From contig JANWVB010000001.1 of assembly GCA_025057695.1 (NCBI GenBank), forward strand, positions 1-43,517: a stretch of DNA of 43,517 nt. The letters run 5' to 3'. Position 1 is the first letter of the stretch. The number at the start of each line of letters is the position of its first letter. Positions 5,972-28,225 of the stretch are shown here, piece by piece. A model generated the notes under the pieces. The model was not told the origin of the DNA, did not search any database, and saw nothing but the letters and a program-made list of their open reading frames with translations. The position numbers were made by a program, and so were the translations under genes. The DNA comes from Patescibacteria group bacterium (GTDB lineage: Bacteria; Patescibacteriota; Microgenomatia; UBA8517).

Positions 5972-5975
5972 ATCT

Positions 5976-6512
5976 TTATTTTTCTATTAAAATTTTAAGT
6001 TTTTCTAAATCTTTTTTAGTTTTTTTACGCAAATTATAAGTTGTCACCGGGGACCAAAACCTTTCATTTTGTCGAATAAATCTTATTGAAGTTTTCACTC
6101 TAAGTGTCGTGTTTTTATTCTGTTCAATTAGGGTAAATTGTGTGTTGCCAATATTTTGATTATCTTTGAACTCATAACTAAGTTCGATACTTTTATCTTT
6201 AGATAAACTTCTGACACTGAAAGACACATCTCCCTGATTAGTAACAAGAAAATATTTGGTATTTTTACCCGGTTCACCTTGAGTAAGTAAAATAACTTCT
6301 CTTGTTCCACTCCACCATTCTTGAACCTTTTGAGGATCCAAAATAAAATTATAAACATCTTTGGCTTGAGATTTAATTAGAATCTCCTCCTCAAATGTTT
6401 TGACATAAGAATAATTACTAGTTGCATGAATAATTAAAACAGCACCAATAACACAAATAAAAATACCAACTCCAAAGAGCAAAAACAAAAATACATTTTT
6501 AATCCATTGCAT
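5976..6512 (-). CDS. membrane-anchored SRPBCC (START/Bet v1-like) family protein, function unknown
   Basis: N-terminal TM helix, then a pattern typical of the polyketide-cyclase/SRPBCC fold (VYNFILDPQKVQEWWSG...). Confidence 0.5.
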   Translation of the reverse strand: MQWIKNVFLFLLFGVGIFICVIGAVLIIHATSNYSYVKTFEEEILIKSQAKDVYNFILDPQKVQEWWSGTREVILLTQGEPGKNTKYFLVTNQGDVSFSVRSLSKDKSIELSYEFKDNQNIGNTQFTLIEQNKNTTLRVKTSIRFIRQNERFWSPVTTYNLRKKTKKDLEKLKILIEK

Positions 6513-6804
6513 AACTTAGACAATGCGAACAAGCAGAATTAAAAAATTTCAAACAAATTTATTACTTACAGTTTAAGACAAACAAAAAGACAATTTAAGA
6601 ACTAAATCTTTCCAAATAAAACAATTTTGTCAAAACAGAATTAAATTTAACAAAGTTTATAAAAAACTGCTTTTAATTTATTAAAGTTTGTTTTTGTAAA
6701 TCAAAGATAAATCGCAATGGGTAATTAAAATAATCAAATCAACCTGAAAATACCAGCTTGGCAAAGAACTTAAATATAAAAGCCATTGTTTCAAAGAACC
6801 AGGT

Positions 6805-8625
6805 TTATTGTTCAATCTGCCTTTGCATTTTCCTTCTCTCAGCTTCTGTAAGATATTTTTTCCTCAATCTTAAAGATAATGGAGTAATTTCCAAAAGTTC
6901 ATCACTTTCTAGAAAATCCAAACATTGCTCCAAAGAAAACTTAGTCGCTGGTGTTAGTTGTATAATACCATCAGAAGATTTGGATCTCATATTAGTAAGC
7001 TTTTTGCCTTTTGTTACATTAATTAAAATATCCTCATCCTTGGCATTACTACCTATTATCATTCCTTCATAAACTTGCTCTCCTGGATTTATAAAGGTAA
7101 CACCTCTTTCCTGAGCGTTTTCAAGACCGTAAGCCAAAGCTTCTCCGGCGCGATCAGCAATCAGAACACCCTTTCTTAATCTGGGAAGTGTTTTGCCTAA
7201 AGGTTCATACCCCATTAACGTGGATGAATAAACCACTGTGCCTTTTGTCGCTGTCAAAAGCGCGCTTTTTAAACCAATCAAAACTCTTGTTGGCGCTTTA
7301 TAAACAAATTCTGTCTCATATTCATTTATAGTCTGCATATTGACAAGCGATGCGTATCTTCTTCCCAACTCTTCAGACACAACACCCACAAATTCGCTAG
7401 GAACAATTATCAGAACCTCCTCCACAGGCTCTTTTAAAACACCATCAATTTGTTTAACTATTACTTCAGGTTTACCCACTTCCATCTCATAACCTTCGCG
7501 TCTTAAAGTCTCAAGCAAAACAGATAAATGAAGCTCGCCACGCCCTGAAATCACAAATTTTCCATTCCCAAGTTTTTCAAGACGCAAACTTAAATTGCTT
7601 TCCAATTCTTTTTCCAGTCTTTCTTCAAGTTGTCTACTGGTTGTATATTTCCCTTCTTTACCTGAAAAAGGAGAAGTATTGGGACCAATAGTCATATGAA
7701 GCGTTGGCTCGCCAACACTGACACCGGGCAGAGAAACACAATCTGAAGGATCTGAAACAGTATCACCAATTGAAACTTGCCCCACGCCAGAGAAACAAAC
7801 TATTTCACCTGTTTGCGCTTCTTCAGCCTCCACTTTGTCTAATCCTTGATAAACAAAAAGGTTTTCAACTTTTGAAATTGAATTTGCAAACTTAGTATTA
7901 ATTATCTTCATTCCTTTTTGAATTTTCCCTTGATATACTCTTCCAATTACAAGCCTGCCCAAATAGGCATCATAATCCAAAGAGGTGACAACCATCTTAA
8001 AAACACCTGTTTTTTCAGAAACGTAAGGCACATTGTCCAAAATCGCATCCAACAAAGGATAAACATTGCCTTCCTGTTCTAGATTGGTTGGAATTTGATT
8101 AAAAACAACTCCCCGTTTCCCTATCGCATATAACACAGGAAAATCAAGATATGATTCATCATTGGCAAGTTCCAAGAAAAGAGATTCAACATTCCTAAGC
8201 GCCTCTTGCGGTTTCGCAAATTGTTTATCAATTTTGTTGATAACCACAATTATCTTTAATCCCGAAGATATGGCTTTTTTAAGCACGAATCTGGTTTGAG
8301 GCATTGGGCCTTCCTGAGCGTCAACTATCAAAATAGCGCCATCGGCCATTCCTAAAGTTCTTTCAACTTCTCCTGAAAAGTCTGCATGACCCGGAGTGTC
8401 AATAATATTGATTTTTACACCTTTGTACATAACTGCACAGTTTTTAGCAATAATTGTAATCCCCCGCTCTCTCTCAAGCTCGTTTCTATCTAAAATAGTG
8501 GTTTGTTGCATCTCGGCTTGATTGCTACGAAAAGTGTCAGTCTGTTTTAAGATAGCGTCAACAAGTGTCGTTTTGCCGTGATCAACATGGGCAATAACAG
8601 CAACATTTATAATTCGCATAAACAA
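6805..8625 (-). CDS. typA: translational GTPase TypA/BipA
   Basis: 606 aa. G-domain motifs AHVDHGKTT, DTPGH and NKID, with full-length BipA-like architecture. Confidence 0.95.
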   Translation of the reverse strand: MFMRIINVAVIAHVDHGKTTLVDAILKQTDTFRSNQAEMQQTTILDRNELERERGITIIAKNCAVMYKGVKINIIDTPGHADFSGEVERTLGMADGAILIVDAQEGPMPQTRFVLKKAISSGLKIIVVINKIDKQFAKPQEALRNVESLFLELANDESYLDFPVLYAIGKRGVVFNQIPTNLEQEGNVYPLLDAILDNVPYVSEKTGVFKMVVTSLDYDAYLGRLVIGRVYQGKIQKGMKIINTKFANSISKVENLFVYQGLDKVEAEEAQTGEIVCFSGVGQVSIGDTVSDPSDCVSLPGVSVGEPTLHMTIGPNTSPFSGKEGKYTTSRQLEERLEKELESNLSLRLEKLGNGKFVISGRGELHLSVLLETLRREGYEMEVGKPEVIVKQIDGVLKEPVEEVLIIVPSEFVGVVSEELGRRYASLVNMQTINEYETEFVYKAPTRVLIGLKSALLTATKGTVVYSSTLMGYEPLGKTLPRLRKGVLIADRAGEALAYGLENAQERGVTFINPGEQVYEGMIIGSNAKDEDILINVTKGKKLTNMRSKSSDGIIQLTPATKFSLEQCLDFLESDELLEITPLSLRLRKKYLTEAERRKMQRQIEQ

Positions 8626-8709
8626 ATCACAAGAAATTAAATATTGGGTTATTTACTTAATCAATAGCGGTTATTTTATCAAAAGTCTGTGAATTTGGAC
8701 AAACCAGCA

Positions 8710-9552
8710 TCAAACGACATAAATATCTTGATTATACTCACTTACACCAACTTTCTTACCTTCGCCTTTTAGGACCTTCTCAAGCGGCCGACAAGCAAAA
8801 CATCCTTCTTTTGGACATTTAAAATGATCCATTTGACGAGCGAGTTTTATTCTTCGCGCAACTTTCAAAACCTGTTCTTTTGCCAAAGATAATTCCGGCA
8901 AAACTTTCTCAATTATAGAATTATCTCTATCTAAATACCAATAGCTTGCCTTTGAAACCAACCTTCTTTGAGTATTAACCGCTAAAAGCAAATAAATCAG
9001 CAATTGCAAAGATTCAGCTTCTTCGTCATTTTTACCTGTTTTAAAATCAATTATATGCACACTATCATCAGGCAAATATTCAAGCCAATCAATTTTCCCA
9101 CACAAAATTATATTTTCTTCTTCAGACAACCAAAAATAAGGCAATCCGCCATCAGCTCTTATTTTAACAGCCTTTCTAAGAATTGGTCCGGGATTTTTTT
9201 GTATTCTATCTAGCATTACCAAACCACGATTTTTGTACTCGATTTCTTCTTTTTTATCTTTAAATCCACCCATCTCGCCAGAAACTTTTTGCCATGCTGT
9301 TTCAAACCTTTTTGACAATTTAATAAGCATTCTTTCTTGCGCGGGTAAATAAGATAATGATTCTATAACTTCATGAACAGCTTGCCCTAGTGCAAGAGGT
9401 GGAGACATAACTGTTATTTTATGATTAGTTTTTGGATCTTTATAAACATTTCGCAAATAATAAGTCCTCGGGCACCTTAAAAAATCCGCAATTGAGGAAT
9501 GCGAAACCCAAACAGCCCTAAATTTATCTGGTTTTTGATTAGTCATCTCCAT
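8710..9552 (-). CDS. PD-(D/E)XK nuclease, Cas4/AddB-like with Fe-S cysteines
   Basis: N-terminal Cys (FLRCPRTYYL), IIDFKTGK and QLLIYLL core motifs, and a C-terminal CPKEGCFAC cysteine triad. This is the RecB-family nuclease domain arrangement with a 4Fe-4S cluster. Confidence 0.75.
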   Translation of the reverse strand: MEMTNQKPDKFRAVWVSHSSIADFLRCPRTYYLRNVYKDPKTNHKITVMSPPLALGQAVHEVIESLSYLPAQERMLIKLSKRFETAWQKVSGEMGGFKDKKEEIEYKNRGLVMLDRIQKNPGPILRKAVKIRADGGLPYFWLSEEENIILCGKIDWLEYLPDDSVHIIDFKTGKNDEEAESLQLLIYLLLAVNTQRRLVSKASYWYLDRDNSIIEKVLPELSLAKEQVLKVARRIKLARQMDHFKCPKEGCFACRPLEKVLKGEGKKVGVSEYNQDIYVV

Positions 9553-9564
9553 ATAAAATCTTGC

Positions 9565-9870
9565 TCAAACAAAAATCACTTTGTCCCCCACTTTTAGTTT
9601 ATTGTCTTTTATAAAACAACTCTTACACTCAAGCGCTACAAATGATTTAAATCCCAAAAAAAGAATTTGATTAGGTTTAAGCGACTCAATCAATTTAACT
9701 ACAATTCCCTGCCTGTTTAGTATGATAACATCTATAGGATAAAAAACCCAAAATGTATGTATTCCGATTCTTGATTCAAAATAAACAGGCGGTTTCTGAA
9801 AACCAAACATCAATCCTGTCATTGACTCTAAAAATCTCAATTTTTTTGCGCGGACAATCAACATAGACAT
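9565..9870 (-). CDS. DUF192 domain protein
   Basis: Small 101 aa protein whose GIHTFWVFYPIDVIILN...VGDKVIF pattern resembles DUF192. Confidence 0.5.
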   Translation of the reverse strand: MSMLIVRAKKLRFLESMTGLMFGFQKPPVYFESRIGIHTFWVFYPIDVIILNRQGIVVKLIESLKPNQILFLGFKSFVALECKSCFIKDNKLKVGDKVIFV

Positions 9871-9923
9871 TTCTTTTAAATATCTGTTGATATTTAATGT
9901 TTTTTATGGCTTAATGTTAAACT

Positions 9924-10460
9924 ATGGATGACCAAACAAAAACAACAAACCAAGATCTTGCAGAAACTGCAAATACACAAGACCCTCAAATCAATTCTTA
10001 TTCAAGTGAAGATAATTCAACACAAATAAACCAAGTTGTAGACACAAAAAGTGCTTCTAGTCAATTTGATTACCTTCAAAACCTTCAATCTCAGATAAAT
10101 ATATATCTTTCAAGAATTGAAAATCTTAAGCAGGAAATCCAACCTGTAAAAGAGATGATTGATTCATATCTTTCAAACGATCCTTTATACGCTGAACTTT
10201 CTGTAAAAGCCAAAGAATCAACAAAAGAAAAAAGCAAAAGGAAAAAAGAGTTAATGTCCTCGCCAAACGGCAAAGCTCTAAATCAAAAGATGGAAAAAAT
10301 AAAAGAGGAACAAAATGAAGCAAACGAAATGCTTTCTCAACTGCTATCAGAATACCAAAAAGCTACAGGAGCAACTGTTTTTGAAGGAGCTGATGGAGAA
10401 ATAAGACAGATAGTAATGATAGCCAAACTAATACGCAAAACGAATCTAAATAGAGACTAA
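9924..10460 (+). CDS. hypothetical protein: low-complexity acidic N-terminus plus coiled coil
   Basis: Long ORF in a clean intergenic context. Q/N/S-rich N-terminus and K/E-rich heptad-like middle. No family recognised. Confidence 0.55.
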   Translation: MDDQTKTTNQDLAETANTQDPQINSYSSEDNSTQINQVVDTKSASSQFDYLQNLQSQINIYLSRIENLKQEIQPVKEMIDSYLSNDPLYAELSVKAKESTKEKSKRKKELMSSPNGKALNQKMEKIKEEQNEANEMLSQLLSEYQKATGATVFEGADGEIRQIVMIAKLIRKTNLNRD

Positions 10461-10503
10461 CTGCTTGACTAATTTAATTTCTACAATCACCATTTTTATC
10501 AAC

Positions 10504-10513
10504 AAGGAGGTGA
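10504..10513 (+). promoter_or_regulatory. Shine-Dalgarno sequence (AAGGAGGTGA) for the FMN-binding protein operon
   Basis: Near-perfect anti-SD complement ending about 8-10 nt upstream of ATG 10521. Confidence 0.6.
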
Positions 10514-10520
10514 AAGTTTT

Positions 10521-11024
10521 ATGGAAGAAAACCATAGTGAACCAGAATCAAAACCAGATCAAAAAAACAGCAATTTCTTGCCAATGGCGGTTGTTTTTGT
10601 AATTGCCGCAATTGCAATTGGAGTATATTTAAGTCAGCAAAAACCTGCCACTCACACGACAAATACATCACCTGCAATTGAAATAACAAACGAAAAATCA
10701 TCTGATACAGTTGATACAGTTGTCAACACATACAAAGATGGGGATTATGAGGCGTTAGGACAATACACAACTCCCGGCGGGCAAAGTGAAATAGGTCTAA
10801 GAATAAAATTAGAAAAAGGGATAATAATAGATTCATCAGTAGAAATCAGAGCCAACGATCCGCCATCAAGAAGATTTCAGCAGGAATTTGCCAAGAACTA
10901 CAAACAATTTGTTATCGGCAAGAAAATTGACGATCTTAATCTAACCAAAGTTGCCGGTTCATCGCTAACCCCAAAAGGCTTTAACGAAGCTATCGCAAAA
11001 ATAAAAGCGGAAGCTAAATCGTAA
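10521..11024 (+). CDS. membrane-anchored extracytoplasmic FMN-binding domain protein (NqrC/RnfG-like)
   Basis: One N-terminal TM helix. YKDGDYEALG...IGLRIKLEKGIIIDSSVE...LTKVAGSSLTPKGFNEAIAKI matches the FMN_bind domain layout. VAGSSLT (10950-10970) occupies the place of the flavinylated vSGATiT motif. Confidence 0.7.
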   Translation: MEENHSEPESKPDQKNSNFLPMAVVFVIAAIAIGVYLSQQKPATHTTNTSPAIEITNEKSSDTVDTVVNTYKDGDYEALGQYTTPGGQSEIGLRIKLEKGIIIDSSVEIRANDPPSRRFQQEFAKNYKQFVIGKKIDDLNLTKVAGSSLTPKGFNEAIAKIKAEAKS

Positions 11025-11030
11025 CTAAAG

Positions 11031-11915
11031 ATGGATATCAACAACTTTACATTTGAAGCAACGGGGACTGTTTGGCAAATTGATATTTACGATCCTGTAT
11101 CGAAAAAAATTAAAGCCAAAATTTCTGATTTGGTAAAAAGTGAAGCTGACAATTTTGAAAAAAAATACTCAAGATTTAGAGACGATTCTTGGTTGAGAAA
11201 AATATCCCGATTAAGACAAAAGTCAAAATTGCCTAAAGACGCAAAAACTATCTTTGACTTATATCAAAACTTATACAAAATTACAAACGGAATTTTCACT
11301 CCGTTAATAGGAAGTTTCATGGAAGAATCAGGATATGACTCCAACTACTCTCTTATTCCCAAAATCTCGCTTCACCATCCGCCAACATGGAAAAACGCGA
11401 TTGAATACAACTATCCATATATTCAAATAAAACAAAATGTTGTCATAGACTTCGGAGCGGCTGGCAAGGGGTACTTGATTGATATAATAAAAAATTTGCT
11501 GAAAGACAACCAAATCAACTCTTTTTGCATTGACGCGGGAGGGGATATATACGTAAACAACCACCCCACAGGGAAAATGCAAATAGGATTGGAAAATCCC
11601 AAAAATTTATCTGAAGTAATTGGAATTATTTATCTTAATAACGCAAGCATTTGCGCGTCGTCGGGCAACAGGCGACGATGGGACAAATTTCATCATATTA
11701 TCAATCCTCAAACATTAAGTTCCCCTACCGATATTATTGCCACATGGACAATAGCGCAAAGCGCTTTAATAGCCGACGCAATGTCAACTTGCCTATTTTT
11801 GGTAGATAAATCTATATTGCAAAATGCTTACAATTTTGATTATCTCATCTTAAAAAAAGATTTTAGCTTTGAAAAATCAAGCGGTTTTGAAGCTGAATTA
11901 TTTTTAAAAAATTAA
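11031..11915 (+). CDS. apbE: FAD:protein FMN transferase ApbE
   Basis: FGAAGKGYLID, DAGGDIY and ASSGNRRRW..HHIINPQT motifs typical of ApbE. Lies 6 nt after the preceding gene. Confidence 0.9.
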   Translation: MDINNFTFEATGTVWQIDIYDPVSKKIKAKISDLVKSEADNFEKKYSRFRDDSWLRKISRLRQKSKLPKDAKTIFDLYQNLYKITNGIFTPLIGSFMEESGYDSNYSLIPKISLHHPPTWKNAIEYNYPYIQIKQNVVIDFGAAGKGYLIDIIKNLLKDNQINSFCIDAGGDIYVNNHPTGKMQIGLENPKNLSEVIGIIYLNNASICASSGNRRRWDKFHHIINPQTLSSPTDIIATWTIAQSALIADAMSTCLFLVDKSILQNAYNFDYLILKKDFSFEKSSGFEAELFLKN

Positions 11916-11918
11916 AAC

Positions 11919-13442
11919 ATGATACAAAAAATCGACACATATCTAAATAGCATCACAATGTATAAAATCACTGTTTACGCGCTTTGTGCGATTGCCTTAT
12001 TATCAATAGCATACGGATTTTTAGGGATACTCCCTTTTAACGCAATTTCTCTTATTGTTTCTTTGTCAGTAATAATCATAACATGCTATATTTCAAACAA
12101 AATTTGTCAAAAAATTTCTAATCTTCCCACAAACAATGATTCATGGCTTATAAGCGCGTTAATACTTTTTTTGATTATTGCTCCGCCAGATAATTATCAA
12201 AGCGATATTTTAATAACAATCATCGCAAGCGCAATTGCTATCTTCTCAAAATATATTTTCAAACTAAAAAACAGTCATATATTCAATCCAGTAGCATTGG
12301 CTCTTTTGATAATTGGCATTTTTGGCTTCGGAAATTCTATATGGTGGGTAGGAAGTGCAAATCTTGCAATACCTGTTGCCATATTGGGATTTTTAGTGGT
12401 TAGAAAGATAAGACAATCCGGCATGGTCTTTGCTTTTTTTATAACAACGCTTGTGACAATCAGTGTATTTAGCCTGAAAAACAATATTGATATTGTGAAA
12501 TCAATTTATGAGGTAGTTATTTCATGGCCAACAATCTTTCTGGGAACAATAATGCTTACAGAACCTTCGACAATGCCTGCAACAAATTTACAAAGAAAAA
12601 TATATGGAGCGGTAGTTGGATTTTTGTTTAGCTTTCAATTTTCTTTTGGCCCAATTTTTTCATCTCCCGAGCTTGCAATAGTAATTGGCAATGTATTTTC
12701 GTGTTTGATAAGTCCAAAACAAAAAACTATTCTTGCTTTTAAAACAAAGCTAAAAATAGCCAGAAACACTTACGAATTTGTTTTTGAGCCAGACAAAAAA
12801 TTGACATTTTTGCCCGGACAATATCTGGAACTAACTCTTAATACGACCACAAACGACACAAGAGGAAATAGAAGGTACTTTACTATTGCATCATCGCCAA
12901 CCGACACAAAAGTAAGATTTGGAATAAAGTTTGCGGATGCGAAAGGAAGTAGCTTCAAAGATACAATTTTTAATTTAAGAGCCGACGACAAAGTATTGGC
13001 AGGAAATTTAGGCGGCGACTTTGTAATGCCAAAAGACACCAATAAACCTCTAGTTTTCATCGCGGGCGGGATAGGAATCACGCCTTTTATAAGCATGATC
13101 AGATATCTTACCGACACCAAAGAAAAAAGACCCATTACTCTTTTTTACGCAAACAATACAAAAAACGACATCGCATACAAAGATGTGCTAGACCAAGCAA
13201 ACAAAAAATTAGGATTGAAAACTATTTACTTGCTTACAAACAAAAATTTGGTTCCAAAAAACTGGAAAGGAGAAGTAGGATACTTAAACGAAGAAATAAT
13301 CAAAAAACATGTAAAAAACCATAAAGAGCAAATATATTACTTATCAGGTCCAAACGCGATGGTTGATTCTTATAAAAATCTGCTTGCCAAAATCGGCATA
13401 CCAGATAAACAAATAAAAACAGATTACTTCCCCGGATTTTAG
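11919..13442 (+). CDS. fusion protein: RnfD/NqrB-like polytopic membrane domain plus FNR-like FAD/NAD(P)H-binding oxidoreductase domain
   Basis: The N-terminal ~265 aa carry HIFNPVA and ISWPTIFLGTIMLTEPSTMPAT, which align with RnfD FNPA and LSGATMLGAFFILTDPVT. The C-terminal part carries RRYFTIASSP (RxYS FAD motif), LVFIAGGIGITPF (NAD(P)H motif) and YYLSGPNAM. The start is 3 nt after the apbE stop. Confidence 0.8.
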   Translation: MIQKIDTYLNSITMYKITVYALCAIALLSIAYGFLGILPFNAISLIVSLSVIIITCYISNKICQKISNLPTNNDSWLISALILFLIIAPPDNYQSDILITIIASAIAIFSKYIFKLKNSHIFNPVALALLIIGIFGFGNSIWWVGSANLAIPVAILGFLVVRKIRQSGMVFAFFITTLVTISVFSLKNNIDIVKSIYEVVISWPTIFLGTIMLTEPSTMPATNLQRKIYGAVVGFLFSFQFSFGPIFSSPELAIVIGNVFSCLISPKQKTILAFKTKLKIARNTYEFVFEPDKKLTFLPGQYLELTLNTTTNDTRGNRRYFTIASSPTDTKVRFGIKFADAKGSSFKDTIFNLRADDKVLAGNLGGDFVMPKDTNKPLVFIAGGIGITPFISMIRYLTDTKEKRPITLFYANNTKNDIAYKDVLDQANKKLGLKTIYLLTNKNLVPKNWKGEVGYLNEEIIKKHVKNHKEQIYYLSGPNAMVDSYKNLLAKIGIPDKQIKTDYFPGF

Positions 13443-13623
13443 TATAAAGCAAGAAAAAGTCTTGACAAATTAGACTTTAGACTTGGGCTTGAGTAAAATA
13501 AAAGGCAGTTAAATTCTTTATCAAATTAGATTTTAAAAATAAAAAACACACATTTTGTATTCCAAACGCTTTTGAGCAGGCAAAAAGTTGGAAATTGTCA
13601 ATAAATCTTAATCCGAAAAATAT

Positions 13624-13697
13624 TGCGGGATCGTCTAATGGTAGGACAACAGACTCTGGATCTGTTTATTGGGGTTCGAATCCCTATCCCGCAGCCA
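13624..13697 (+). tRNA. tRNA-Gln (anticodon CUG), CCA encoded
   Basis: Hand-folded cloverleaf: acceptor TGCGGGA/TCCCGCA (U1:A72), D stem GTCT/GGAC, anticodon stem ACAGA/TCTGT with loop CTCTGGA, T arm TGGGG-TTCGAAT-CCCTA, discriminator G, then CCA. Confidence 0.9.
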
Positions 13698-13930
13698 ATA
13701 TGAATTTGAAAGAGTTTGGGAGGTGGCGCTTGCCGCTCCTGTTGTCATGGCAAGGGCATCAAATCCAACTTTTTTGAAACTTGCTACCAACCACCTAAAA
13801 ATAAGGAAGAAAAAACGCAAAAATTTTAAAGACTAAACCTATTTCTTCGTCTGGAAGTCTGCCGTTGATTGTATACCTGATCAATTTTATCTTTCACACT
13901 ACTAAAAAACCTTATTAATTTTTCATATTT

Positions 13931-14836
13931 TTACGGCTCCACAGTTTCTCTTCTGCTTTCTAATATTGATAATAATACTTCACTGCTGGAGAGTGGAGTT
14001 TGGTATCTAAAGTGTTCATAAGCATCAGTTATTACTCTTTGTGGATTTAAGAACCTTTCTCTGAGAGCTTTTTTGTATTCCTCCATATTAACTCTCCAGC
14101 AATGTCCCGACGGGCTTAACCAATATTCAATCATATCTTTACCATAACCATCTTTGATAGTTACTCGGCTTATTTCATTTGTTTGCGGATCATACTCAAC
14201 TTTTGGAGATTTTCTTTGAGAGTCGGCAATTTTATACCTTTCCCTAATTTGTTGAGCTTGCGACGGACCTAAATTGCCACTCTGAACAAAATGTGCAATC
14301 ACATCTTCAATTTCTTGAGGAGAAGGGAAAAAAGTACCAAGCTTATCGTCGTATGCTCTGAAAGCAAATTCAGGGTTACCGCTACCTAAATTATATCGAT
14401 TGCCTCTATAATGCGCCCAAACACTATTTTCTGCGATCTCAAACATTTCTTGCTCATAAGGACCTTGAACTTGTATTTCAACAAGAGGCAAATTTAATCG
14501 TCTAGCATGTTGTTTCATTTTTTCTGTAATTACCTGATCGATTGGCTCACCACGCTTGTCCACTTTGACAAAGAAACCTCTTAATTGCAGCGTCTCTCCG
14601 CTTTCAGATTTTCCAAAAGCCACAACCTCGTTATAGGTTCCACTAGAAGTTAATTTAAGTAATTGATCGCCAGAAAGCAGTAATCAACCTTGTGCCTGTC
14701 GTCTCAAAAATTCTTTGCTTGAACTATGCGACCCCATGTCAGTTGGGGAAGTGATAACGATATTGCCCTCTGGAGCTTCAACGATAATTCCTCCTTGTCC
14801 CCAAGTTTTCGTATGTGCTTGATCTATAAGAGACAT
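13931..14836 (-). pseudogene. unknown-function gene interrupted by an in-frame TGA (14684-14686)
   Basis: ATG at 14836 opens MSLIDQAHTKTWGQGG...RRQAQG, then TGA. The same frame continues unbroken (LLLSGDQLLKLTSSGTYNEVV) into the tracked ORF 13931..14623, which only begins at a GTG. No family recognised. Confidence 0.55.
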
Positions 14837-14899
14837 CCTTAGATAAACCTTAATACTTAATCTTTCTGGCTGATCAAAAAGATTTATAGATTGATCACC

Positions 14900-15130
14900 T
14901 TATGATTTATCAACTTTATATGCGCCGGATGATTCTGCGGAAATTGCAAATAATGGTTGCGAAGCCGTTGCAAAAGGATTGAAGGCGTGAACCAAATACC
15001 GAAATTTTTTGGGGTCATGTTTTTCTGGGTCACTTACTTCACCCCAGATTTTTGGACGCGGTTTTTCTTCATGAGTGGGATTTACTTTTTCAAAATTGAT
15101 TGGCGGTCTTTTTTCAAATTGGTCTGACAT
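14900..15130 (-). CDS. hypothetical 76 aa protein, possibly the 5' piece of the same decayed gene as 13931..14836
   Basis: ORF with ATG but no SD. Its reading frame is identical to the downstream pseudogene, and the 21 codons between them are also open. Confidence 0.4.
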   Translation of the reverse strand: MSDQFEKRPPINFEKVNPTHEEKPRPKIWGEVSDPEKHDPKKFRYLVHAFNPFATASQPLFAISAESSGAYKVDKS

Positions 15131-15497
15131 AGTATAATGACGTTAATTATTGATTCTATGCTGAAATCTTATCAAATTGTAAAATTTTTGTAAACACCCT
15201 GCACTCTACGAAGCCGAGCAAAAATCACACGCGCAAAAAATAGTGGAGGAACAACGTCGGAGTAAACGAGGCTAAAGGCCGAGCTAGTACATTGAAATTC
15301 AACATTTTTTGTAAAGGATCAGCCACGATTTTAACAAGATGACCTTGGTGCACACAAAAACACATGTCTTCATTCAAAAGTAAATTTTATTACTCAGACA
15401 TTCGTACTTTACCCTCAGTGTTTGGAGAATTATCCTTGAAATTGGCACTTTGCATCTACAAAATCAGTTGATTTTTATTTCTTTATATGTTTAACAA

Positions 15498-15839
15498 TTA
15501 TTCTAAATATTGAACCTGTGGTTCTTTTTCTTCGGATTCGAACCAGAAGGGCATATAAGCGGAAAGATCTTCAACGGTACTCCTGAAAGCAAAACCAGCA
15601 TTGTTAATCAATACGTCAACCTTTTTCAGTCTTTTTCTTAATTTTACAAATGAACGTTTTATAGAGGCAATATCCAACAAATCTGTTTCTGTAAAGAAAT
15701 AATCCTTATGTTTAAAATCGGCAACATTTTTTCTTCCCATTCATAAAACAATATACTTATTACTATCTAAGGCCTTTTCAACAAACGCTTTACCTATCCC
15801 TGAGCTAACTCCTGTAATTACCACATATTTTTTATTCAT
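15498..15839 (-). pseudogene. short-chain dehydrogenase/reductase (SDR), truncated and carrying an in-frame TGA (15741-15743)
   Basis: AAGGAGG SD, then MNKKYVVITGVSSGIGKAFV (TGxxxGIG Rossmann motif), YIVL, TGA, then MGRKN...VDVLINNAG. The ORF ends about 30 aa after NNAG, so the catalytic YxxxK region is missing. Confidence 0.7.
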
Positions 15840-16747
15840 TTCTGACCTCCTTTGCTAACTCATACAAAATGCCGGAGGAAATGTTATTGTTACTTGGAAC
15901 TACTATATCTGTGCCAAGAAATTTGCTAATTTGAAAAATATCAATCAAAGCATTTTCAGCAGACCACATATAATAGGGTTCGGCTGGAAACATTGACATT
16001 CGCTCTTCATAGGGTAGGGCAATTATTCTTTCGTACACAGGGTATAGCCTTTTAATTTGAGTCCGAAATGGGTGATCAAAAGCACCATTATTTTCATCAA
16101 GTTTCACGTTCATTGCTTTTAAAAAGTCAATAATGTTAGTTGTTCCATAAACCAGCAGTTCTGGTTTTTGTTTAGTCTTAGCTAAGGATTTCATTTCACT
16201 TTTTACATATTTTTTCGCATTCGCCAACTCTTTTTTGGTTGGGTGATGAGTTTTGTACAAGGTCTCTTGCATAAAGTAGGTACTTATTTTGAAAAGATGA
16301 GTTTCATATATATTATTGTCCTTGCCAATAACTACCTGTACACTGCCGCCACCGATATCAGATACAGCAATTGTTTTCTTTGGAAAATCCTTCGAAACCG
16401 AGTTGAAATAGATTCGTGCTTAATCATCATGGCTTAACATCTCGAGCGATACTCCAGTCTTGTCTTTTATTTCTTTAAGTACCTCTTTTGCATTTTTGGC
16501 CTTTCTTATAGCTTCAGTCGTTACAGCCTTATAATTATGAACACCCAACTCATCAAGTAGTATCTATAGCTTTACGTATTATTAAGCCATCGGTTTTATC
16601 AAGATCTCTTCCTAGTACCGTTAGTTCCTTTTCTCTAGCAAGAGTTTTTGATGAATAATTTTTATCAAATTCCCAAACTTTAAATTTGCTCTTTAAAGTT
16701 CCCACATCAATAACAGCCGTTCGTATATAATTATTTGGTTTTGACAT
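15832..16747 (-). pseudogene. Ppx/GppA-family phosphatase, with a frameshift and an in-frame TAA
   Basis: Three collinear pieces. First, MSKPNNYIRTAVIDVGTLKSKF... Second, after a frameshift around 16553-16563, LDELGVHNYKAVTTEAIRKAKN...LSHDD, then TAA (16420-16422), then ARIYFNSV...VSDIGGGSVQVV. Third, ORF 15832..16272. The phosphate-1 (DxGT) and phosphate-2 (DIGGGS) motifs of the ASKHA fold are present. Confidence 0.8.
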
Positions 16748-16874
16748 TTAAATATTTTTTTAATAATTGATACCGTTCAGATATATTTTCCCTCAGATAT
16801 GATCCACATACAACATTGGTTAAATCTGACTCCTCCAACTCAAGAACAACTTTATTATCAACACTCCTGTCTAA

Positions 16875-17246
16875 AGTTATAATTGGCTGATGGCTGGTGC
16901 TGTAAGCCCGCGACAAATCAAAGAACCAAAATTTGTTGAATCTATAAGAAGAACTGGATTGGTCACTGTAGAAGTCTCTGCTGTAACACCCAAAATATGC
17001 GCATTAATTCGTGGGGAGTTTTAATCGGCTGTTTACTTTCCTCAAGACGGGCAATCCGCTGCTTTATGGGACTACGCCGCAGGGGTATTGCTTATCCAGG
17101 AGTTTGGCGGAAGAATAAGTTCATTATGTGGCGCTGAGCTTCCATTCAGAGGAGCAAATATTATTCACAAAAAAGGCTGGTTAGCTACTCGGAATATTGA
17201 TCATGCGTATTTATTAGCTTGTCTGAATAGTCTAGGTAAACTATAA
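16875..17246 (+). pseudogene. inositol monophosphatase/CysQ-family fragment: C-terminal ~120 aa only, with an in-frame TAA (17022-17024)
   Basis: ...IRRTGLVTVEVSAVTPKICALIRGEF, then TAA, then SAVYFPQDGQSAALWDYAAGVLLIQEFGGRISSL... matches the C-terminal WD-x-AAG / EAGG region of IMPase-fold enzymes. The N-terminal metal-binding half is absent. Confidence 0.65.
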
Positions 17247-17254
17247 TAACTCAA

Positions 17255-17788
17255 ATGACAAAAGTGCAAAAATGGCAATAGCTCTCAAGAGAAATAGCTT
17301 GTCAAAAATACAGTCGTCAGATTGAAAAAGTAACTTTTAAACTTCCTGATGGGAAAGAAACCGACTTTTATATCAAAAGAGAAGGTCCGGCAGCTGGGAT
17401 TTTGGCAATAACAAAAGACAGAAAAGTAATTCTTGTAAAGCAGTATCGACCTGGGCCAAAAGAAGTTCTCCTTGAACTACCTGGTGGCTATGTTGATCCC
17501 AACGAGGAACCTGAAAAGACAATGGAGCGTGAATTACTTTAAGGAACAGGATATAAAGGCAAAGTTAAACTTGTCACTACTTGTTTTGATGACGCTTACT
17601 CTACAATGAACAGGTACTGCTTTGTTGCAACTGATTGCGAGAAAGCCAGTGACCATCAAGCGGGCGAGCATGAATTTGTAGAAATTGAAATGCTATCTCT
17701 GAAAGATTTCAGAAAGCTTTTGCGTACCGGCAAGATGACCGATGTTGAAGTGGGATACCTCGGTCTTGATTTTCTAAACCTTCTCTAA
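17255..17788 (+). pseudogene. ADP-ribose pyrophosphatase-like NUDIX hydrolase with two in-frame stops
   Basis: Single frame: MTKVQKWQ, TAG (17279-17281), LSREIA...VKQYRPGPKEVLLELPGGYVDPNEEPEKTMERELL, TAA (17540-17542), GTGYKG..., joining tracked ORF 17606..17788. In the Nudix box REUxEE, the first Glu is a stop and the second is Gly. Confidence 0.8.
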
Positions 17789-17828
17789 CAGAGATAATAA
17801 ATAGCTCCAATATCCAATAATAAATAAT

Positions 17829-18516
17829 ATGAAAATATTTTTTCATTCCTCAATCTTTGCCAAAGAACATTATGAAGAGGCATACCTTTTAATTGTTAAG
17901 ATTTGCAAAGATAGTGGTCACACAGTATTTGCCGATCATATGCTTAAACGCGATTATCACGACACAGATAAGTATACCAGAAAAGAGCACCAGCAAGATT
18001 TTCAAAGATTGACTAAGCAAATTAAGGAATCCGATGTCGTTATTATTGAAGGAATTGCGCCTAGTATTGGAACTGGACATTACATGACTATTGCATTAGG
18101 GTATCTAAAACCAGTTTTAGTGCTTCACCAAAATAAGCCGCATGGAGTGTTGGTTGGCAAACCTAACAGGTTATTGTCCTCAAGACGGTATTCAATAAAT
18201 GACAAAAAAGTTGGAGAAGGCAATCAAAGATTTTCTGAGAGACGCCGAAAAGAAAACTTTGAAAAATAGATTTAACTTAATGCTAGACGATGAAATGATA
18301 GACTTTCTTGAAAAATACTCCAAACAAGAAAAGGCCAAAGCAGAAAAATTGCAGAAATACATCAAGAAACAAAATGACAATGGTCAAAAACTTTTCGGTG
18401 GGATTGTGATTGAGATTGAGAAAAGCGATGGTTGGAGGATAAATCAAAAACCAGTGTATGATTGGAACAAGTGTGAACAAAAAGATTGGAGCGACTGGAA
18501 AAAACTAGAATTTTGA
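17829..18516 (+). pseudogene. DNPH1/nucleoside 2-deoxyribosyltransferase-like domain followed by a ribbon-helix-helix-like tail, split by a +1 frameshift in an A6 run
   Basis: ORF 17829..18269 (ESDVVIIEGIAPSIGTGHYMTIALGYLKPVLVL, compare DNPH1 ADVVVAEVTQPSLGVGYELG) and ORF 18199..18516 (LEKAIKDFL...RFNLMLDDEMIDFLEKYS) overlap in different frames. Removing one A from A6 at 18204-18209 fuses them into about 229 aa. Confidence 0.55.
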
Positions 18517-18539
18517 CAAAGTATACATAAGCTTGCTCA

Positions 18540-18568
18540 TTGACAAACAATCACTGAATGTTTAGATT
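18540..18568 (+). promoter_or_regulatory. candidate sigma70-type promoter (TTGACA, 17 nt spacer, TAGATT)
   Basis: Perfect -35 hexamer at 18540-18545, a 17 nt spacer, and a 4/6 -10 at 18563-18568, about 50 nt upstream of ATG 18620. A second TTGACA lies at 18513-18518. Confidence 0.3.
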
Positions 18569-18584
18569 AAACCAGTTAATTATT

Positions 18585-18608
18585 TTACTTACTTACTTAG
18601 TCTTAGTC
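18585..18608 (+). repeat. compound microsatellite (TTAC)3(TTAGTC)2
   Basis: Read directly from the sequence. It lies between the candidate promoter and the start of ORF 18620. Confidence 0.6.
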
Positions 18609-18619
18609 TAAAAATAAAA

Positions 18620-19126
18620 ATGAATGATAAGCCAACTTTGTCGTATTATTTTACTCATCAATATCTACGGGACATTGTGCAAGATTATTTCGCTTTTTTT
18701 GATTCTGTTGTCAGGTTAGGAGATGCGATTTTAAAAAAAACATTAAGACAGACTTTTGAAACTTTAAAAAACTATAATCTATCTGAAACAGATGTATTAA
18801 TAGAAGAGGATGATTTTTCCTCTTTTATGGTCCCAATAGGAGCAAATAAAGCCCCTTTATTGGTTATCAAATTGCCAAAACCTAAAAATACAACTGAAGC
18901 AAGTCATGTGGCAATATTTCTTGGAGTCAGGCCAGTTCGTTTCTTTACCTTTGAACTTCACTTGCCAAATGAAATAGAAAAACAAATAAATCCAAACGCT
19001 CAAACTAAATATCTTTTAGCTGAATGGACCAAAAAAGAGCACAAGCTGTTAAATTTTAGTTGCAATGATCCCGATTCAACTAAATTTGCCCAAGCAATCG
19101 CAAACATACTAAATACAACCCATTAG
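18620..19126 (+). CDS. hypothetical protein (168 aa)
   Basis: Intact ORF with ATG. No recognisable motifs. One of the few uninterrupted ORFs in the tRNA-Gln-adjacent patch. Confidence 0.5.
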   Translation: MNDKPTLSYYFTHQYLRDIVQDYFAFFDSVVRLGDAILKKTLRQTFETLKNYNLSETDVLIEEDDFSSFMVPIGANKAPLLVIKLPKPKNTTEASHVAIFLGVRPVRFFTFELHLPNEIEKQINPNAQTKYLLAEWTKKEHKLLNFSCNDPDSTKFAQAIANILNTTH

Positions 19127-19160
19127 TAATCTGCCCAAAAAAAAGAGATATCTATGCAAA

Positions 19161-19462
19161 ATGTGTCACGGATTTTCTGATGAAGTAGATTTGCTCATGC
19201 AAAAACTTGAGAAAGCACGTTTTTTTGCCAAAGAAACGGAAACTATCACAATCTTGTTTGGCAAGCAAATATAGGTTTCAGACAGATTTCAGATCCACTC
19301 GCAAGCAAACTGCTTACAGAGTTGTTTATTGCAAATTTCGCTTCCTTTTATGAAAATAATTCTACACAAGGTCAATACTCACCCGATCTAAGAAAAAAGA
19401 TAAGAAGAATTTTAGCTCAATTTGTAACCAACACTCAAAAAAATTTTATTCAGACAATTTAG
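19161..19462 (+). pseudogene. decayed gene remnant of unknown function, with a -1 frameshift near 19266-19270
   Basis: MCHGFSDEVDLLMQKLEKARFFAKETETITILFGKQ ends at TAG. The -1 frame continues with protein-like ...NIGFRQISDPLASKLLTELFIANFASFYENNSTQGQYSPDLRKKIRRILAQFV... to TAG at 19460-19462. Confidence 0.3.
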
Positions 19463-19542
19463 CTCAACAAATTAACTTATTAACTTAGAAGATATTCTAA
19501 AAGCATTCTTGTTAGGAAAATTGTAAGTTAAATAACTAATTG

Positions 19543-21045
19543 TTAAGAACTATCTATCTTCCTCAACCTTTTTTGAATCTGGCGTCTTGCTGTTGTGGTA
19601 ACTACAAAACTTAACCAATCGTTATTGGGTTTGACTGGATTTTTGTGCTTTATTATTTCAACTACATCGCTATTTGAAAGTTTGTAATTAAGCGGAACTA
19701 TTTTGTTATTAACTTTTGCAACTTTTATGTAATCACCCAAGTCCGTATGCACAGCATATGCAAAATCAACAGGCGTTGCGCCAACAGGCAAATCATAGAC
19801 ATCTCCTTTTGGCGAAAAGACAAAGATCCTGTCACTTAAGGCATCAAACTTAACAGCCTTTAGAAATTCTTCAGAATCAGAAATTTCTTCCTGCCACTTT
19901 GCCAATTGTTTAACCCATCGCAATTTGTTCTCATCAACTTTTATCAAACCTTTCTCCAAACGTTCATCGCTTGCTCCTTTAGACTTTGCTTCAGAATACG
20001 CCCAGTGAGAAGCTGCACCGTACTCTGCCTGCTCATGCATTTCAAACGTTCTAATTTGTATCTCAACAAACCTGCCCTGAGGACCTAAAACTTTAGTGTG
20101 TATTGATCTATAACCATTGGGCTTTGGTTGGGCAATAAAATCAGATATACCAATATCAGGAATGGGCCTATAAGTATGATGCACAATACCCAAAGCGGCA
20201 TAGCAATCGGCAACCGTGTTTACCAAGATCCTAAGAGCCACAATATCATGAATTTTCTCAAAATCCCAATTTATATTTGGCCTATTTAGTTTTTTCCATA
20301 AAGAGTACAAATGTTTTTTGCGCGCATGCACTTCTGCTTGTATGCCATTTTCTACCAATCTTCTCAAAAGAGTATGCCTAATTTTCTTGATGTGCTGTTC
20401 GGCATTGGAATAATAAGGCTTGGATTCTTTAAGCACTCTTTCATATTCACTTTTGTATAAATAAGGAAACGCCATATCCTCTAATTTCCCTTTTATCTCA
20501 CCCATTCCAAGCCTCTCAGCAAGCGGAGCAAAAATTTCTATAGTTTCTTTTGCAAATCTTACTTGCCTGTCAACGGGAAGCGCGTACAAAGTGGCAAGAT
20601 TATCAAGTCTCTCAGCCATTCTTATGACAACAACGCGCAAATCTTTAGCCATTGCAAGGATCATTTTTCGTAAATTTTCGACAAAAATCTCATTGTCATT
20701 TCCCCTCACCTTAGCCTTTGACACACGAGAAACACTTTGCACTAAATTTGCTATTTCGTGTCCAAATTCTTGTACTAAATCCTCGCTTTTGGCCCCACCC
20801 CAATCAATAGTGTCGTGCAATATGCCAGAAACAATTGAAGTTATGTCCATTTTCCAATCAGCAAGATAAATAGCAGTATTAAGCGGATGCGCCAAAAACC
20901 ATTCCCCGGAATCTCTTTTTTGCCCGGTGTGAGCCAATTTTGCAAATTCCCAAGCTTTTTCTAACAACAAAATATCCTCTTTGCTAAAATTCCGATCAAA
21001 TAGTTTGTTCTTTAATTGATTAAACTTGTTTTCTAAATCAACCAT
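19543..21045 (-). CDS. relA: bifunctional (p)ppGpp synthetase/hydrolase, RelA/SpoT homolog (HD, synthetase and TGS domains; no ACT domain)
   Basis: HD hydrolase motifs (LAHPL..., GILHDTID), synthetase motifs (YRSIHTKV, EIQIRTFEMH) and a TGS domain (IFVFSPKGDVYDLPVGATPVDFAYAVH). Confidence 0.92.
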   Translation of the reverse strand: MVDLENKFNQLKNKLFDRNFSKEDILLLEKAWEFAKLAHTGQKRDSGEWFLAHPLNTAIYLADWKMDITSIVSGILHDTIDWGGAKSEDLVQEFGHEIANLVQSVSRVSKAKVRGNDNEIFVENLRKMILAMAKDLRVVVIRMAERLDNLATLYALPVDRQVRFAKETIEIFAPLAERLGMGEIKGKLEDMAFPYLYKSEYERVLKESKPYYSNAEQHIKKIRHTLLRRLVENGIQAEVHARKKHLYSLWKKLNRPNINWDFEKIHDIVALRILVNTVADCYAALGIVHHTYRPIPDIGISDFIAQPKPNGYRSIHTKVLGPQGRFVEIQIRTFEMHEQAEYGAASHWAYSEAKSKGASDERLEKGLIKVDENKLRWVKQLAKWQEEISDSEEFLKAVKFDALSDRIFVFSPKGDVYDLPVGATPVDFAYAVHTDLGDYIKVAKVNNKIVPLNYKLSNSDVVEIIKHKNPVKPNNDWLSFVVTTTARRQIQKRLRKIDSS

Positions 21046-26992: not shown

Positions 26993-28216
26993 TTAATATT
27001 CTATCTTGTTCCCGTCAGGCACAGCTTCTATCCATATTTTACCTCGAACAAAAAATACTTCTTTCCCCATCTTGTCATAATACCTAGTCCTACTAAATTG
27101 ATTAGCTTTCTCCCAAACTATATCTATCACATCGCCATTTTGAAACAAAAATCCTTTTCCTTTGCCAATATTTTGATAAAACATATGACCCTCATTATCT
27201 ACTGGGCCTCTTTCTTTAACAAATTGTATCAATAAATTTTGTGCGGATATCTGCTCACCTGTTTCATGGTCAACATGCTTAACACCACCATTAAATCTTT
27301 TGTAACTATTAGACGGCGCATCATACTCCCAAACAACATCATAATTAGGCTTATTTTGCCAAAAACTAAAAGATATCTTATCTGTCTTTGGCTGAAGAAT
27401 AGGATTGTTGTCTGAGAATTTCCACATCACAAAGTTAGCATCCCATGCTCTGCCATTTTCACCAACTGCACCAAAACCACGAGCTTTGGACTCTTCATAA
27501 ATTTTATCTGTGAAACCAACAAAAGTATGTTCCCATGCTACTTCGCGTCCAAGACGATTCACATCTCGAATCATTATTGGATAACCAACACTTGTCCCAC
27601 CGTCAAAAGCGTTTCTTTTTGATCCTCGCCACCCTAACTTGTCCAACATCTTAAACGCGTCAACTTCTTTGGTCACTTGACCAACCGGCTTAACACCACC
27701 TGGACAATTTCTGCAAATATTATTTGCTCCGCCCACATGAACAAATAAAGGATTCTCTCCATACTCAGCCGCCCAATTTATAAAATACACCCTTGCGCTT
27801 CTAATTGGACCAATTTTTACCCCAGAATAGGCAACATCACAATACATTACTGCTAGAAATCTAGTTATTCCTCCTTCAGCAACAGCTTCATAAACAATAT
27901 CTGCGCTACCAATACCTGACTGAGGCCTTGCATCTTCATGATTCTCAATTATTGCAACAATAGGACGCCTTTCCTCCCATATTTGTCTCTCTTGCGCTGT
28001 AAACATCTGTCCATTCATAGGGCACTGTTCAGTTTTGGGAAGTGAGGGATCAATTTTTGAATTTGACTCTGAAGTTTTAGCTACAGGAGAAACATTTGGC
28101 TCATTTTTCAAGAAACTAAAAACCAACCAAGAGATCCCAGCCGCTAAAAGATAAACACCCAAGAAAGTACTAATTATATAATACAGTTTGTTTTTGAAAA
28201 CGGATTGATTATTCAT
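26993..28216 (-). CDS. DUF3048 (YerB-like) secreted/lipoprotein-type protein
   Basis: N-terminal TM/signal anchor. IENHEDARPQSGIGSADIVYEAVAEGGITRFLAVMY is the DUF3048 signature. Confidence 0.75.
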   Translation of the reverse strand: MNNQSVFKNKLYYIISTFLGVYLLAAGISWLVFSFLKNEPNVSPVAKTSESNSKIDPSLPKTEQCPMNGQMFTAQERQIWEERRPIVAIIENHEDARPQSGIGSADIVYEAVAEGGITRFLAVMYCDVAYSGVKIGPIRSARVYFINWAAEYGENPLFVHVGGANNICRNCPGGVKPVGQVTKEVDAFKMLDKLGWRGSKRNAFDGGTSVGYPIMIRDVNRLGREVAWEHTFVGFTDKIYEESKARGFGAVGENGRAWDANFVMWKFSDNNPILQPKTDKISFSFWQNKPNYDVVWEYDAPSNSYKRFNGGVKHVDHETGEQISAQNLLIQFVKERGPVDNEGHMFYQNIGKGKGFLFQNGDVIDIVWEKANQFSRTRYYDKMGKEVFFVRGKIWIEAVPDGNKIEY

Positions 28217-28225
28217 AACGACATT

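Follow-up and report, generated by a model that had tools for sequence, protein, structure and literature searches.

A cluster of inactivated genes between tRNA-Gln and relA in the chromosome of a Patescibacteria group bacterium

The stretch of DNA considered here (hereafter the window) comprises 43,517 nucleotides, positions 1 to 43,517 of contig JANWVB010000001.1 in assembly GCA_025057695.1, a Patescibacteria group bacterium. Our subject is the interval 13698-19542, which lies between a gene for tRNA-Gln with anticodon CUG (13624-13697, plus strand; ARAGORN, and Rfam RF00005 with 62 bits) and an intact relA/spoT homologue (19543-21045, minus strand; Pfam HD_4, RelA_SpoT and TGS). On both flanks of this interval the window is densely packed: 31 genes form long unbroken open reading frames (ORFs) without a single lesion, and the coding density amounts to 95% in the left flank and to 90% in the right one, whereas inside the region it drops to 8.7%, the equivalent of one supported intact ORF. 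The resulting gap between the gene for an RnfD-FNR fusion protein and relA measures 6.1 kb and is more than ten times larger than the next largest gap in the window.

Lesions were located by six-frame translation, by Pfam scans of stop-masked conceptual proteins and by base-level alignment to intact orthologues. Between tRNA-Gln and relA, seven genes carry eight nonsense substitutions (six G>T and two C>T, on the coding strand) and two frameshifting deletions of 32 bp and 2 bp; in the orthologue alignments, stops stand in place of codons for Glu, Gln, Arg and Gly. In addition, three genes have been cut short, with junctions at 15558/9, at 16898 and at about 18337-18395, and at least three large deletions fuse truncated fragments to each other. 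Every identifiable remnant has an intact orthologue in related uncultured Patescibacteria, with 86-94% amino-acid identity over the retained segments. An earlier note on this DNA, made without database searches, had described the interval as a gene graveyard between intact flanking genes. Nearly all of the lesions it listed were found where it had placed them, namely those in an unknown gene, SDR, Ppx/GppA, an IMPase fragment, a Nudix gene and a DNPH1-like/RHH ORF, and the flanks proved as intact as it had assumed.

Much of the following leans on a second strain, SKW259 (GCA_026416845.1, a metagenome-assembled genome (MAG) of a Patescibacteria group bacterium), which is about 96-97% identical to the window on both flanks: its contig 4, JAOAEL010000004, aligns to window positions 31040-19531 with 96.0% identity and its contig 7, JAOAEL010000007, to positions 1919-15558 with 96.8%. 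Pooled over 19 flanking genes, the comparison between the window and SKW259 yields a synonymous divergence (dS) of 0.071, a nonsynonymous divergence (dN) of 0.009 and a dN/dS ratio of 0.13.

The gene next to tRNA-Gln, which we call gene A (13826-15130, minus strand), is a pseudogene of a conserved Patescibacteria family of about 430 amino acids (aa) and is interrupted by three nonsense codons. A three-way alignment with SKW259 and contig L021 identifies these as GAA>TAA at 14900-02, CGA>TGA at 14684-86, which is the in-frame TGA already noticed in the unknown gene, and GAA>TAA at 13931-33, a premature stop that had been missed and that removes approximately the last 35 codons. The intact counterpart in SKW259 is 433 aa long. 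Compared with it, gene A shows background synonymous divergence (dS 0.059) and a dN/dS of 1.14, against the pooled 0.13 of the flanks, so that selection on it has been relaxed and its drift since the strains split has been neutral. Derived replacements number 29 in the window lineage and 19 in the SKW259 lineage, and some of those of the window strike residues that are invariant in the family, for example in the change of ERVSLSMSL to IKVYLRMSL. As the SKW259 copy has also accumulated 19 derived replacements, the constraint on gene A was probably already relaxed near the time at which the two strains split, and the damage to gene A is older than that of the other remnants. G:C>T:A changes account for 27% of the changes in the window lineage of gene A; this richness, together with GAA being a common codon, may explain the predominance of G>T among the stops of the region. 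The adjoining non-coding stretch (15131-15558), about 86% identical to SKW259, contains the conserved upstream region of gene A and a terminator hairpin (approximately 15232-15272) from which 15 bp have been deleted in the window.

Gene A adjoins tRNA-Gln(CUG) in the window, in SKW259 and in L021, and lies about 1.1 kb away from it in L036; no insertion therefore follows the tRNA directly on its 3' side. The family comprises about 110 clusters with 25 invariant residues, exclusively from uncultured Patescibacteria-type sources, and its members include, besides the window copy, L020 11915-13216, L021 11700-13180, L036 199-1402 and L037 2256-3497. It has been broken independently in four of these, i.e. 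in the window, L021, L036 and L037. As to its function, neither Pfam, PHROGs, NCBIfam and PADLOC nor a sequence search of the PDB returned a match. A confident AlphaFold model of gene A (pLDDT 84, pTM 0.75) found no counterpart at E < 0.03 in Foldseek searches of the PDB and BFVD, and none to any recombinase. We considered whether gene A might be a mobile element, as many of its homologues occur on contigs of about 1.5 kb and as it is better conserved than its flanks, and rejected this idea: contigs in the collection are short anyway, the window contains no repeats that would mark the ends of an element, and the gene has a fixed place beside tRNA-Gln. A conserved recoding site, suggested by stops two codons apart in the window and in L021, was likewise dismissed, given that L036 and L037 are broken elsewhere and that the window copy has two more stops.

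The next block (15559-16898, minus strand) is 87.4% identical to L022, a Logan contig with an intact PRAI-domain gene tail, a Ppx/GppA gene (315 aa) and a short-chain dehydrogenase (SDR) gene (270 aa). Of the SDR gene the window retains a 5' fragment of 93 of the 270 codons (15559-15839, minus strand; Pfam adh_short with E = 9e-13 over profile positions 1-97 only, and alignment to L022). It carries GGA>TGA at 15741-43, and its 3' part is deleted, the cut falling after codon 93 at 15558/9, where homology to both SKW259 and L022 stops. The Ppx/GppA pseudogene (15832-16747, minus strand; Pfam Ppx-GppA with E = 5e-23, and base-level alignment to L022) has suffered the 32-bp deletion at 16556/16557 and a GAA>TAA change at 16420-22. 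The nearest intact orthologue shares 89% identity with it over 315 aa, and the Ppx orthologues together form a graded series (89, 86, 79, 74, 73% and lower) from Patescibacteria sources that include WWE3 and Shapirobacteria. Ppx differs from its orthologue with a dN/dS of 0.09 at a dS of 0.5, and the derived replacements show no excess in the window (10, vs 11 in the orthologue).

The third member of this block is the PRAI-domain gene, 434 aa in relatives, of which approximately the last 55 codons are left (16734-16898, minus strand). The remainder is deleted, the homology to L022 593-760 ending at 16898, and at this position the fragment meets an IMPase-type fragment head-to-head. The PRAI-domain gene is present in full length in L023-L026, where it belongs to a cluster of about ten genes near ligA (ASCH, APH-like, GT2, a 431-aa protein, HAD, PRAI, Ppx, SDR, a 191-aa protein and PfkB). 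Downstream of the intact Ppx-SDR pair in L022, the nearest relative in which this pair is intact, PfkB (3220-3462) is called at 80 aa, vs 184 aa in L023, and the cluster may be starting to decay in the L022 lineage too.

From 16898 to 18337 the window is 87.0% identical, on the plus strand, to the JGI contig L027, in which three intact genes follow thrS; their products are a PPTase-N/IMPase-motif protein of 221 aa, a Nudix protein of 177 aa and a nucleoside-deoxyribosyltransferase-like protein of 186 aa. The first of these genes is represented in the window by its C-terminal portion of about 115 codons (16898-17246, plus strand; Pfam Inositol_P with E = 2e-6; L027 5789-6137). Roughly the first 106 codons are deleted, and a CAA>TAA change is found at 17022-24. 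What had been read as the C-terminal end of an IMPase gene with a TAA stop is thus correct as to the stop, but is better described as the C-terminal part of this fusion gene. The intact protein (L027 5472-6137, 221 aa) joins the N-terminal domain of a 4'-phosphopantetheinyl-transferase to only the C-terminal IMPase motif (WDxAAG...GG), an unusual fusion that has been under purifying selection (dN/dS 0.16).

The Nudix hydrolase pseudogene (17255-17788, plus strand; Pfam NUDIX with E = 5e-14, and alignment to the intact 177-aa gene of L027) has a GAG>TAG change at 17279-81 and a GAA>TAA change at 17540-42. The latter destroys a glutamate of the Nudix box and is accompanied by an adjoining E>G change, so that RELLEETG has become RELL*GTG; the dN/dS of the whole gene against its orthologue is 0.10. 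It is followed by gene G (17829-18516, plus strand), which is nucleoside 2-deoxyribosyltransferase-like with an RHH-like tail (the window copy matches Pfam Nuc_deoxyrib_tr weakly, the orthologue with 30 bits). Its frame is shifted by the 2-bp deletion at 18207/18208, directly after rather than within the A6 run at which the DNPH1-like/RHH ORF had been thought to split, and a single-frame homologue spans the break. Within G, the window can be aligned to L027 up to about 18337 and to SKW259 again from 18395 onwards.

The sole intact gene of the region is H, an ORF of 168 aa (18620-19126, plus strand) with an intact, 87% identical orthologue in SKW259. Pfam, PHROGs, NCBIfam and PADLOC contain no match to H, whose dN/dS of 0.12 against the SKW259 copy indicates that it is constrained. 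Between H and relA lie 416 bp of unassignable DNA (19127-19542), for which we found neither a homologue nor a counterpart in SKW259. The longest ORF of this stretch, searched against 1.84 billion representative proteins, returned one low-complexity match (E = 1e-3) that we judged spurious, and the further frameshifted gene remnant once suspected here is not recognisable. Homology to SKW259 breaks off sharply and in a non-homologous manner about 20 nt inside the 3' end of relA (19543-19566), which has altered the C-terminus of RelA (RLRKIDSS in the window vs RLREK in SKW259). SKW259, L002 and L003 share the conserved gene order recJ-relA-aspS-dac, which is interrupted in the window at this point. 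The last genes on contig 7 of SKW259 are H and then gltX, mirroring the dac-X-gap-gltX order of L002; to judge from these gene orders, the interval from relA to H in SKW259 most likely contains aspS, dac and gltX.

The two strains have decayed differently at this locus. In place of window positions 15559-18394, SKW259 holds 570 bp, the central 2.85 kb having been lost, and about 1.2 kb of its sequence at this spot is without a called gene. The 570 bp include 284 bp with 73% identity to the ASCH gene of the L023 cluster, and no ORF is left there. It looks as though both strains carry the remnants of one ancestral accessory region from which different parts have been deleted in each. The material that they still share is more divergent than its surroundings, as identity to SKW259 amounts to 82-92% in 15300-15558 and to 87% in 18395-19103, vs 97-100% in the flanks. 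The window contains a second divergent patch at 27300-28500 (70-86% identity to SKW259, vs 97-100% around it), whose genes, at 26993-28216 and 28226-28690 on the minus strand, encode proteins with DUF3048 (dS 0.55, dN/dS 0.18) and DUF4446 (dS 0.30); this patch looks like a recombination import under purifying selection.

Apart from gene A, the remnants differ from their intact orthologues with dN/dS values of 0.06-0.18, at a dS of about 0.35-0.64 for the longer segments. Ratios as low as these at such a dS imply that purifying selection acted during nearly all of the divergence, and the inactivation of these genes is accordingly recent. The orthologues reside in ordinary chromosomal settings of Patescibacteria, near ligA or beside thrS, and the G+C content of the region is like that of its host, which together argue that the genes are native. 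We therefore regard the region, with a probability of about 75%, as an accessory segment that is native to the chromosome of a Microgenomates-type Patescibacterium, varies between strains and is in the midst of reductive decay. The earlier note had thought of horizontally acquired DNA in decay: the DNA is indeed dead, recently inactivated and variable between strains, but it is not a tRNA-linked foreign island. The same note had proposed that intact copies of these genes at the same locus in relatives, with host-like composition, would speak for native and recently decayed genes; intact orthologues and a host-like composition were found, but the orthologues sit at other loci.

The cause of the decay and the order of its steps we infer as follows. 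Dispensable genes of a nucleotide or sugar-phosphate housekeeping type (Ppx/GppA, SDR, the PRAI-domain, PPTase-N/IMPase-like, Nudix and nucleoside-deoxyribosyltransferase-like genes), together with gene A, would have lost their selective value. Small deletions and point mutations of the ordinary kind, the majority of them G>T changes turning GAA, GAG and GGA into stops, would then have disabled them, after which larger deletions would have begun to remove the dead genes and to fuse their truncated fragments. SKW259, already devoid of the central 2.85 kb and keeping the remnant of a different gene, would have advanced further along this path. Except for H, nothing in the segment is expected to work.

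Several observations weigh against this interpretation. The lesions and junctions are read from assembled sequence only. The dS of H against its SKW259 copy is 0.45, six times the genome-wide 0.07. The closest database relatives of Ppx (89%) and gene A (82%) are nearer than those of RnfD-FNR (64%) and RelA (61%), a difference to which, besides uneven sampling, gene flow could have contributed. In relatives, the blocks of intact orthologues lie outside the tRNA-Gln/relA locus, and conservation at the same locus is seen for gene A only. The tetranucleotide distance of the region exceeds the mean of equal-length windows by about 2 standard deviations (SD), although one other part of the window scores equally high. 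Finally, a tblastn search did not find aspS, dac and gltX in the 43.5 kb window, and their absence beside relA is unexplained: either they have been relocated elsewhere in the source genome, or the join on the relA side is an assembly artefact.

The divergence of H, so far above the genomic level, implies that part of the segment was not simply inherited vertically since the strains split; probably, part of it was exchanged in one of the two strains by recombination with a divergent related lineage. To this extent the idea of acquisition, in a weakened form, survives. One may go further and suppose that a Patescibacteria relative, about 13% divergent, was the donor of the whole haplotype between about 15.3 kb and the end of relA, that this haplotype was imported through recombination, be it homologous or illegitimate, and that it decayed before or after its arrival; 'acquired' would then mean taken over from a sister lineage without a mobile element. 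The low identity to SKW259 on both sides of the central deletion, the second patch at 27300-28500 with its dS of 0.55, and the nearer database relatives of the accessory genes are all in accord with such a transfer, as is H, whose dN/dS is low and whose dS is high beside the 0.071 of the core genes. However, the exchange may have run in either direction, and SKW259 could be the recipient; the right break is sharp and non-homologous inside relA, where no relA tail of the 87% type is seen; gene A, the most decayed of all, has background dS and must lie outside any import; and an import does not by itself account for the death of the genes. We consider wholesale import possible, yet rather doubtful. 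Slightly more speculative still is the suggestion that the tRNA-Gln/relA interval is a recombination hot spot, at which Patescibacteria lineages about 13% divergent exchange haplotypes and two strains about 97% identical are left with different remnants of a single ancestral accessory cluster, each eroding independently, and that in the window strain the same events displaced the essential aspS-dac-gltX block from beside relA. Quite another matter is the idea that a site-specific recombinase once integrated foreign DNA, now decaying, at the tRNA-Gln 3' end, which would be suggested by the position of the region 3' of a tRNA, by the differences at this locus between strains and by the slightly raised tetranucleotide distance. 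Pfam scans of all ORFs and stop-masked translations from 13.7 to 19.5 kb detected no domain of an integrase, a transposase or a phage, gene A and the ORFs of unknown function likewise showed no integrase or recombinase when scanned with PHROGs, NCBIfam and PADLOC, and the 25-nt 3' end of the tRNA occurs once in the window even if three mismatches are allowed, in line with the earlier failure to see an integrase, a transposase or an att-like repeat. No significant repeats exist in 13400-19800. The higher G+C content that had been perceived by eye was not borne out, since the value of 35.4%, vs 34.5% in the rest of the window, is within 1 SD of equal-length windows, 27% of which are as high or higher. 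Moreover, the gene next to the tRNA is conserved there in four lineages, the orthologues of the remnants are chromosomal genes of Patescibacteria, and a comparison of synteny uncovered no empty site, as it is the gene A family and not relA that comes after tRNA-Gln in SKW259, L021 and L036. An origin as a tRNA-targeted island is thus highly improbable.

Consensus errors or chimeric joins in a metagenome assembly might have mimicked decay: the source is evidently a metagenome-derived genome, the locus varies between strains, both SKW259 contigs end nearby, the L002 scaffold has a gap at the corresponding place, and the join on the relA side does away with essential genes which are retained at this place in relatives. 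Errors, however, would not concentrate in 5.8 kb and leave 36 kb of flanks clean, and eight stops of the substitution type, a 32-bp deletion and truncations are atypical of read errors. Neither the 29 derived replacements at conserved sites and the dN/dS of 1.14 in gene A nor the additional E>G change beside the stop in the Nudix box would be expected from such errors, and the independently assembled SKW259 is also decayed at this locus. Sequencing or consensus error as the source of the lesions is very unlikely, and we think an artefact of assembly or strain mixture as a whole improbable. Alternatively, the stops might be read through or reassigned (codes 4 or 25) and the frameshifts programmed, so that the genes are functional. 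Some Patescibacteria-related lineages (Gracilibacteria, Absconditabacteria) do reassign UGA, and the gene A relatives in L021 and L037 each contain a single in-frame stop. In the window, all three stop codons are found in-frame, within the region only, and all three also terminate the 31 intact genes (TAA 23, TGA 5, TAG 3), contrary to the non-standard decoding that the earlier note had left as an option. The stops have replaced four different amino acids and stand at different codons in the gene A relatives, the orthologues keep to one frame, contain no stop at the positions concerned and have no slippery site, three genes are physically truncated, and catalytic and invariant residues have been destroyed. 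Recoding can for practical purposes be dismissed.

The surroundings of the region deserve a few remarks. The gene on its left (11919-13442), which is preceded by ApbE, encodes a fusion protein in which an RnfD/NqrB-like membrane domain is joined to an NAD/FAD-binding domain of the FNR type. At E <= 1e-20 this fusion protein has more than 5,000 homologues, and the best 120 of them are mostly of about 505 aa, many with matches to both domains. Its closest non-conspecific homologues are about 50-64% identical, and the named ones among them are Levybacteria, Daviesbacteria or Patescibacteria group. In a scan of species-representative genomes, the relatives of RelA beyond SKW259 are 56-61% identical, one of them labelled Shapirobacteria. 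From these comparisons, the host organism is a Microgenomates-type Patescibacterium. A Logan contig of 1,019 bp (L019, run SRR15826902), independently assembled from a public run, is 100% identical to window positions 10083-11101 and 97.35% identical to SKW259, so that reads of the strain of the window are publicly available. It was the only Logan contig to match; look-ups of ORFs from the region yielded no independent contig, and exact-protein look-ups of RelA, RnfD-FNR, a 101-aa flank protein, H and the G ORF yielded no record. No Rfam family beyond two tRNAs was detected in the whole window at the gathering threshold, nor in 13.4-19.7 kb at E <= 1.

In the textbook account, bacterial genomes shrink as pseudogenes form and are then eroded by deletions, and the accumulation of pseudogenes and their deletional decay are exemplified by Mycobacterium leprae, Rickettsia prowazekii and Sodalis. 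As in such reduced or host-associated genomes, the genes between tRNA-Gln and relA have been inactivated by nonsense mutations and frameshifts and then eroded by deletions, the decay is recent by the low dN/dS against intact orthologues, and close strains differ in what remains. Unlike the scattered decay of those genomes, the lesions are confined here to a single 5.8 kb patch within a stretch of 90-95% coding density, and this patch coincides with a boundary of recombination or rearrangement. With tRNA-linked integrative islands the region shares its position 3' of a tRNA gene and its strain-variable content, but it lacks an integrase, an att repeat and a compositional shift, its tRNA-proximal gene is conserved, and its cargo is native to Patescibacteria. 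A resemblance to flexible genomic islands or hypervariable regions can likewise be seen, given that the flanks are 97-100% conserved while the gene content of the interior differs, that the interior gene shared by both strains is far more divergent (H), and that the window contains a second divergent patch. In contrast to such islands, the interior consists mostly of dead genes, not of alternative functional cassettes, and one boundary is non-homologous and lies inside relA. The region has the defining features of a pseudogene cluster, and every feature of tRNA-linked islands that was tested speaks against such an island. In Parcubacteria MAGs, pseudogenes have been reported to make up approximately 5-10% of genes and have been interpreted as a sign of ongoing streamlining (PMC11188291). 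The tRNA-Gln/relA segment is a well-resolved new instance of a known process, the ordinary shrinkage of a genome.

If the interval is indeed a recombination hot spot and its join on the relA side is real, it would allow pseudogene lifetime and deletion bias to be calibrated in nature for bacteria of the candidate phyla radiation (CPR), and the hot spot would also provide an example of the relocation of essential genes during streamlining. Annotators are warned that this gap of 6 kb is a sign neither of an island nor of an alternative genetic code. The region marks Ppx/GppA, Nudix hydrolase, SDR and their neighbours as dispensable in this lineage, although the practical value of this is modest, and it draws attention to a conserved, tRNA-Gln-linked family of about 430 aa which has an unmatched predicted fold and has been lost repeatedly. 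Above all, it gives a base-resolved snapshot of an ultra-small genome in the course of shedding genes, by point knock-outs and then by stepwise deletions, with SKW259 at a later stage, and thereby confirms that gene loss continues in Patescibacteria, where it was earlier documented mainly by genome-wide counts of pseudogenes.

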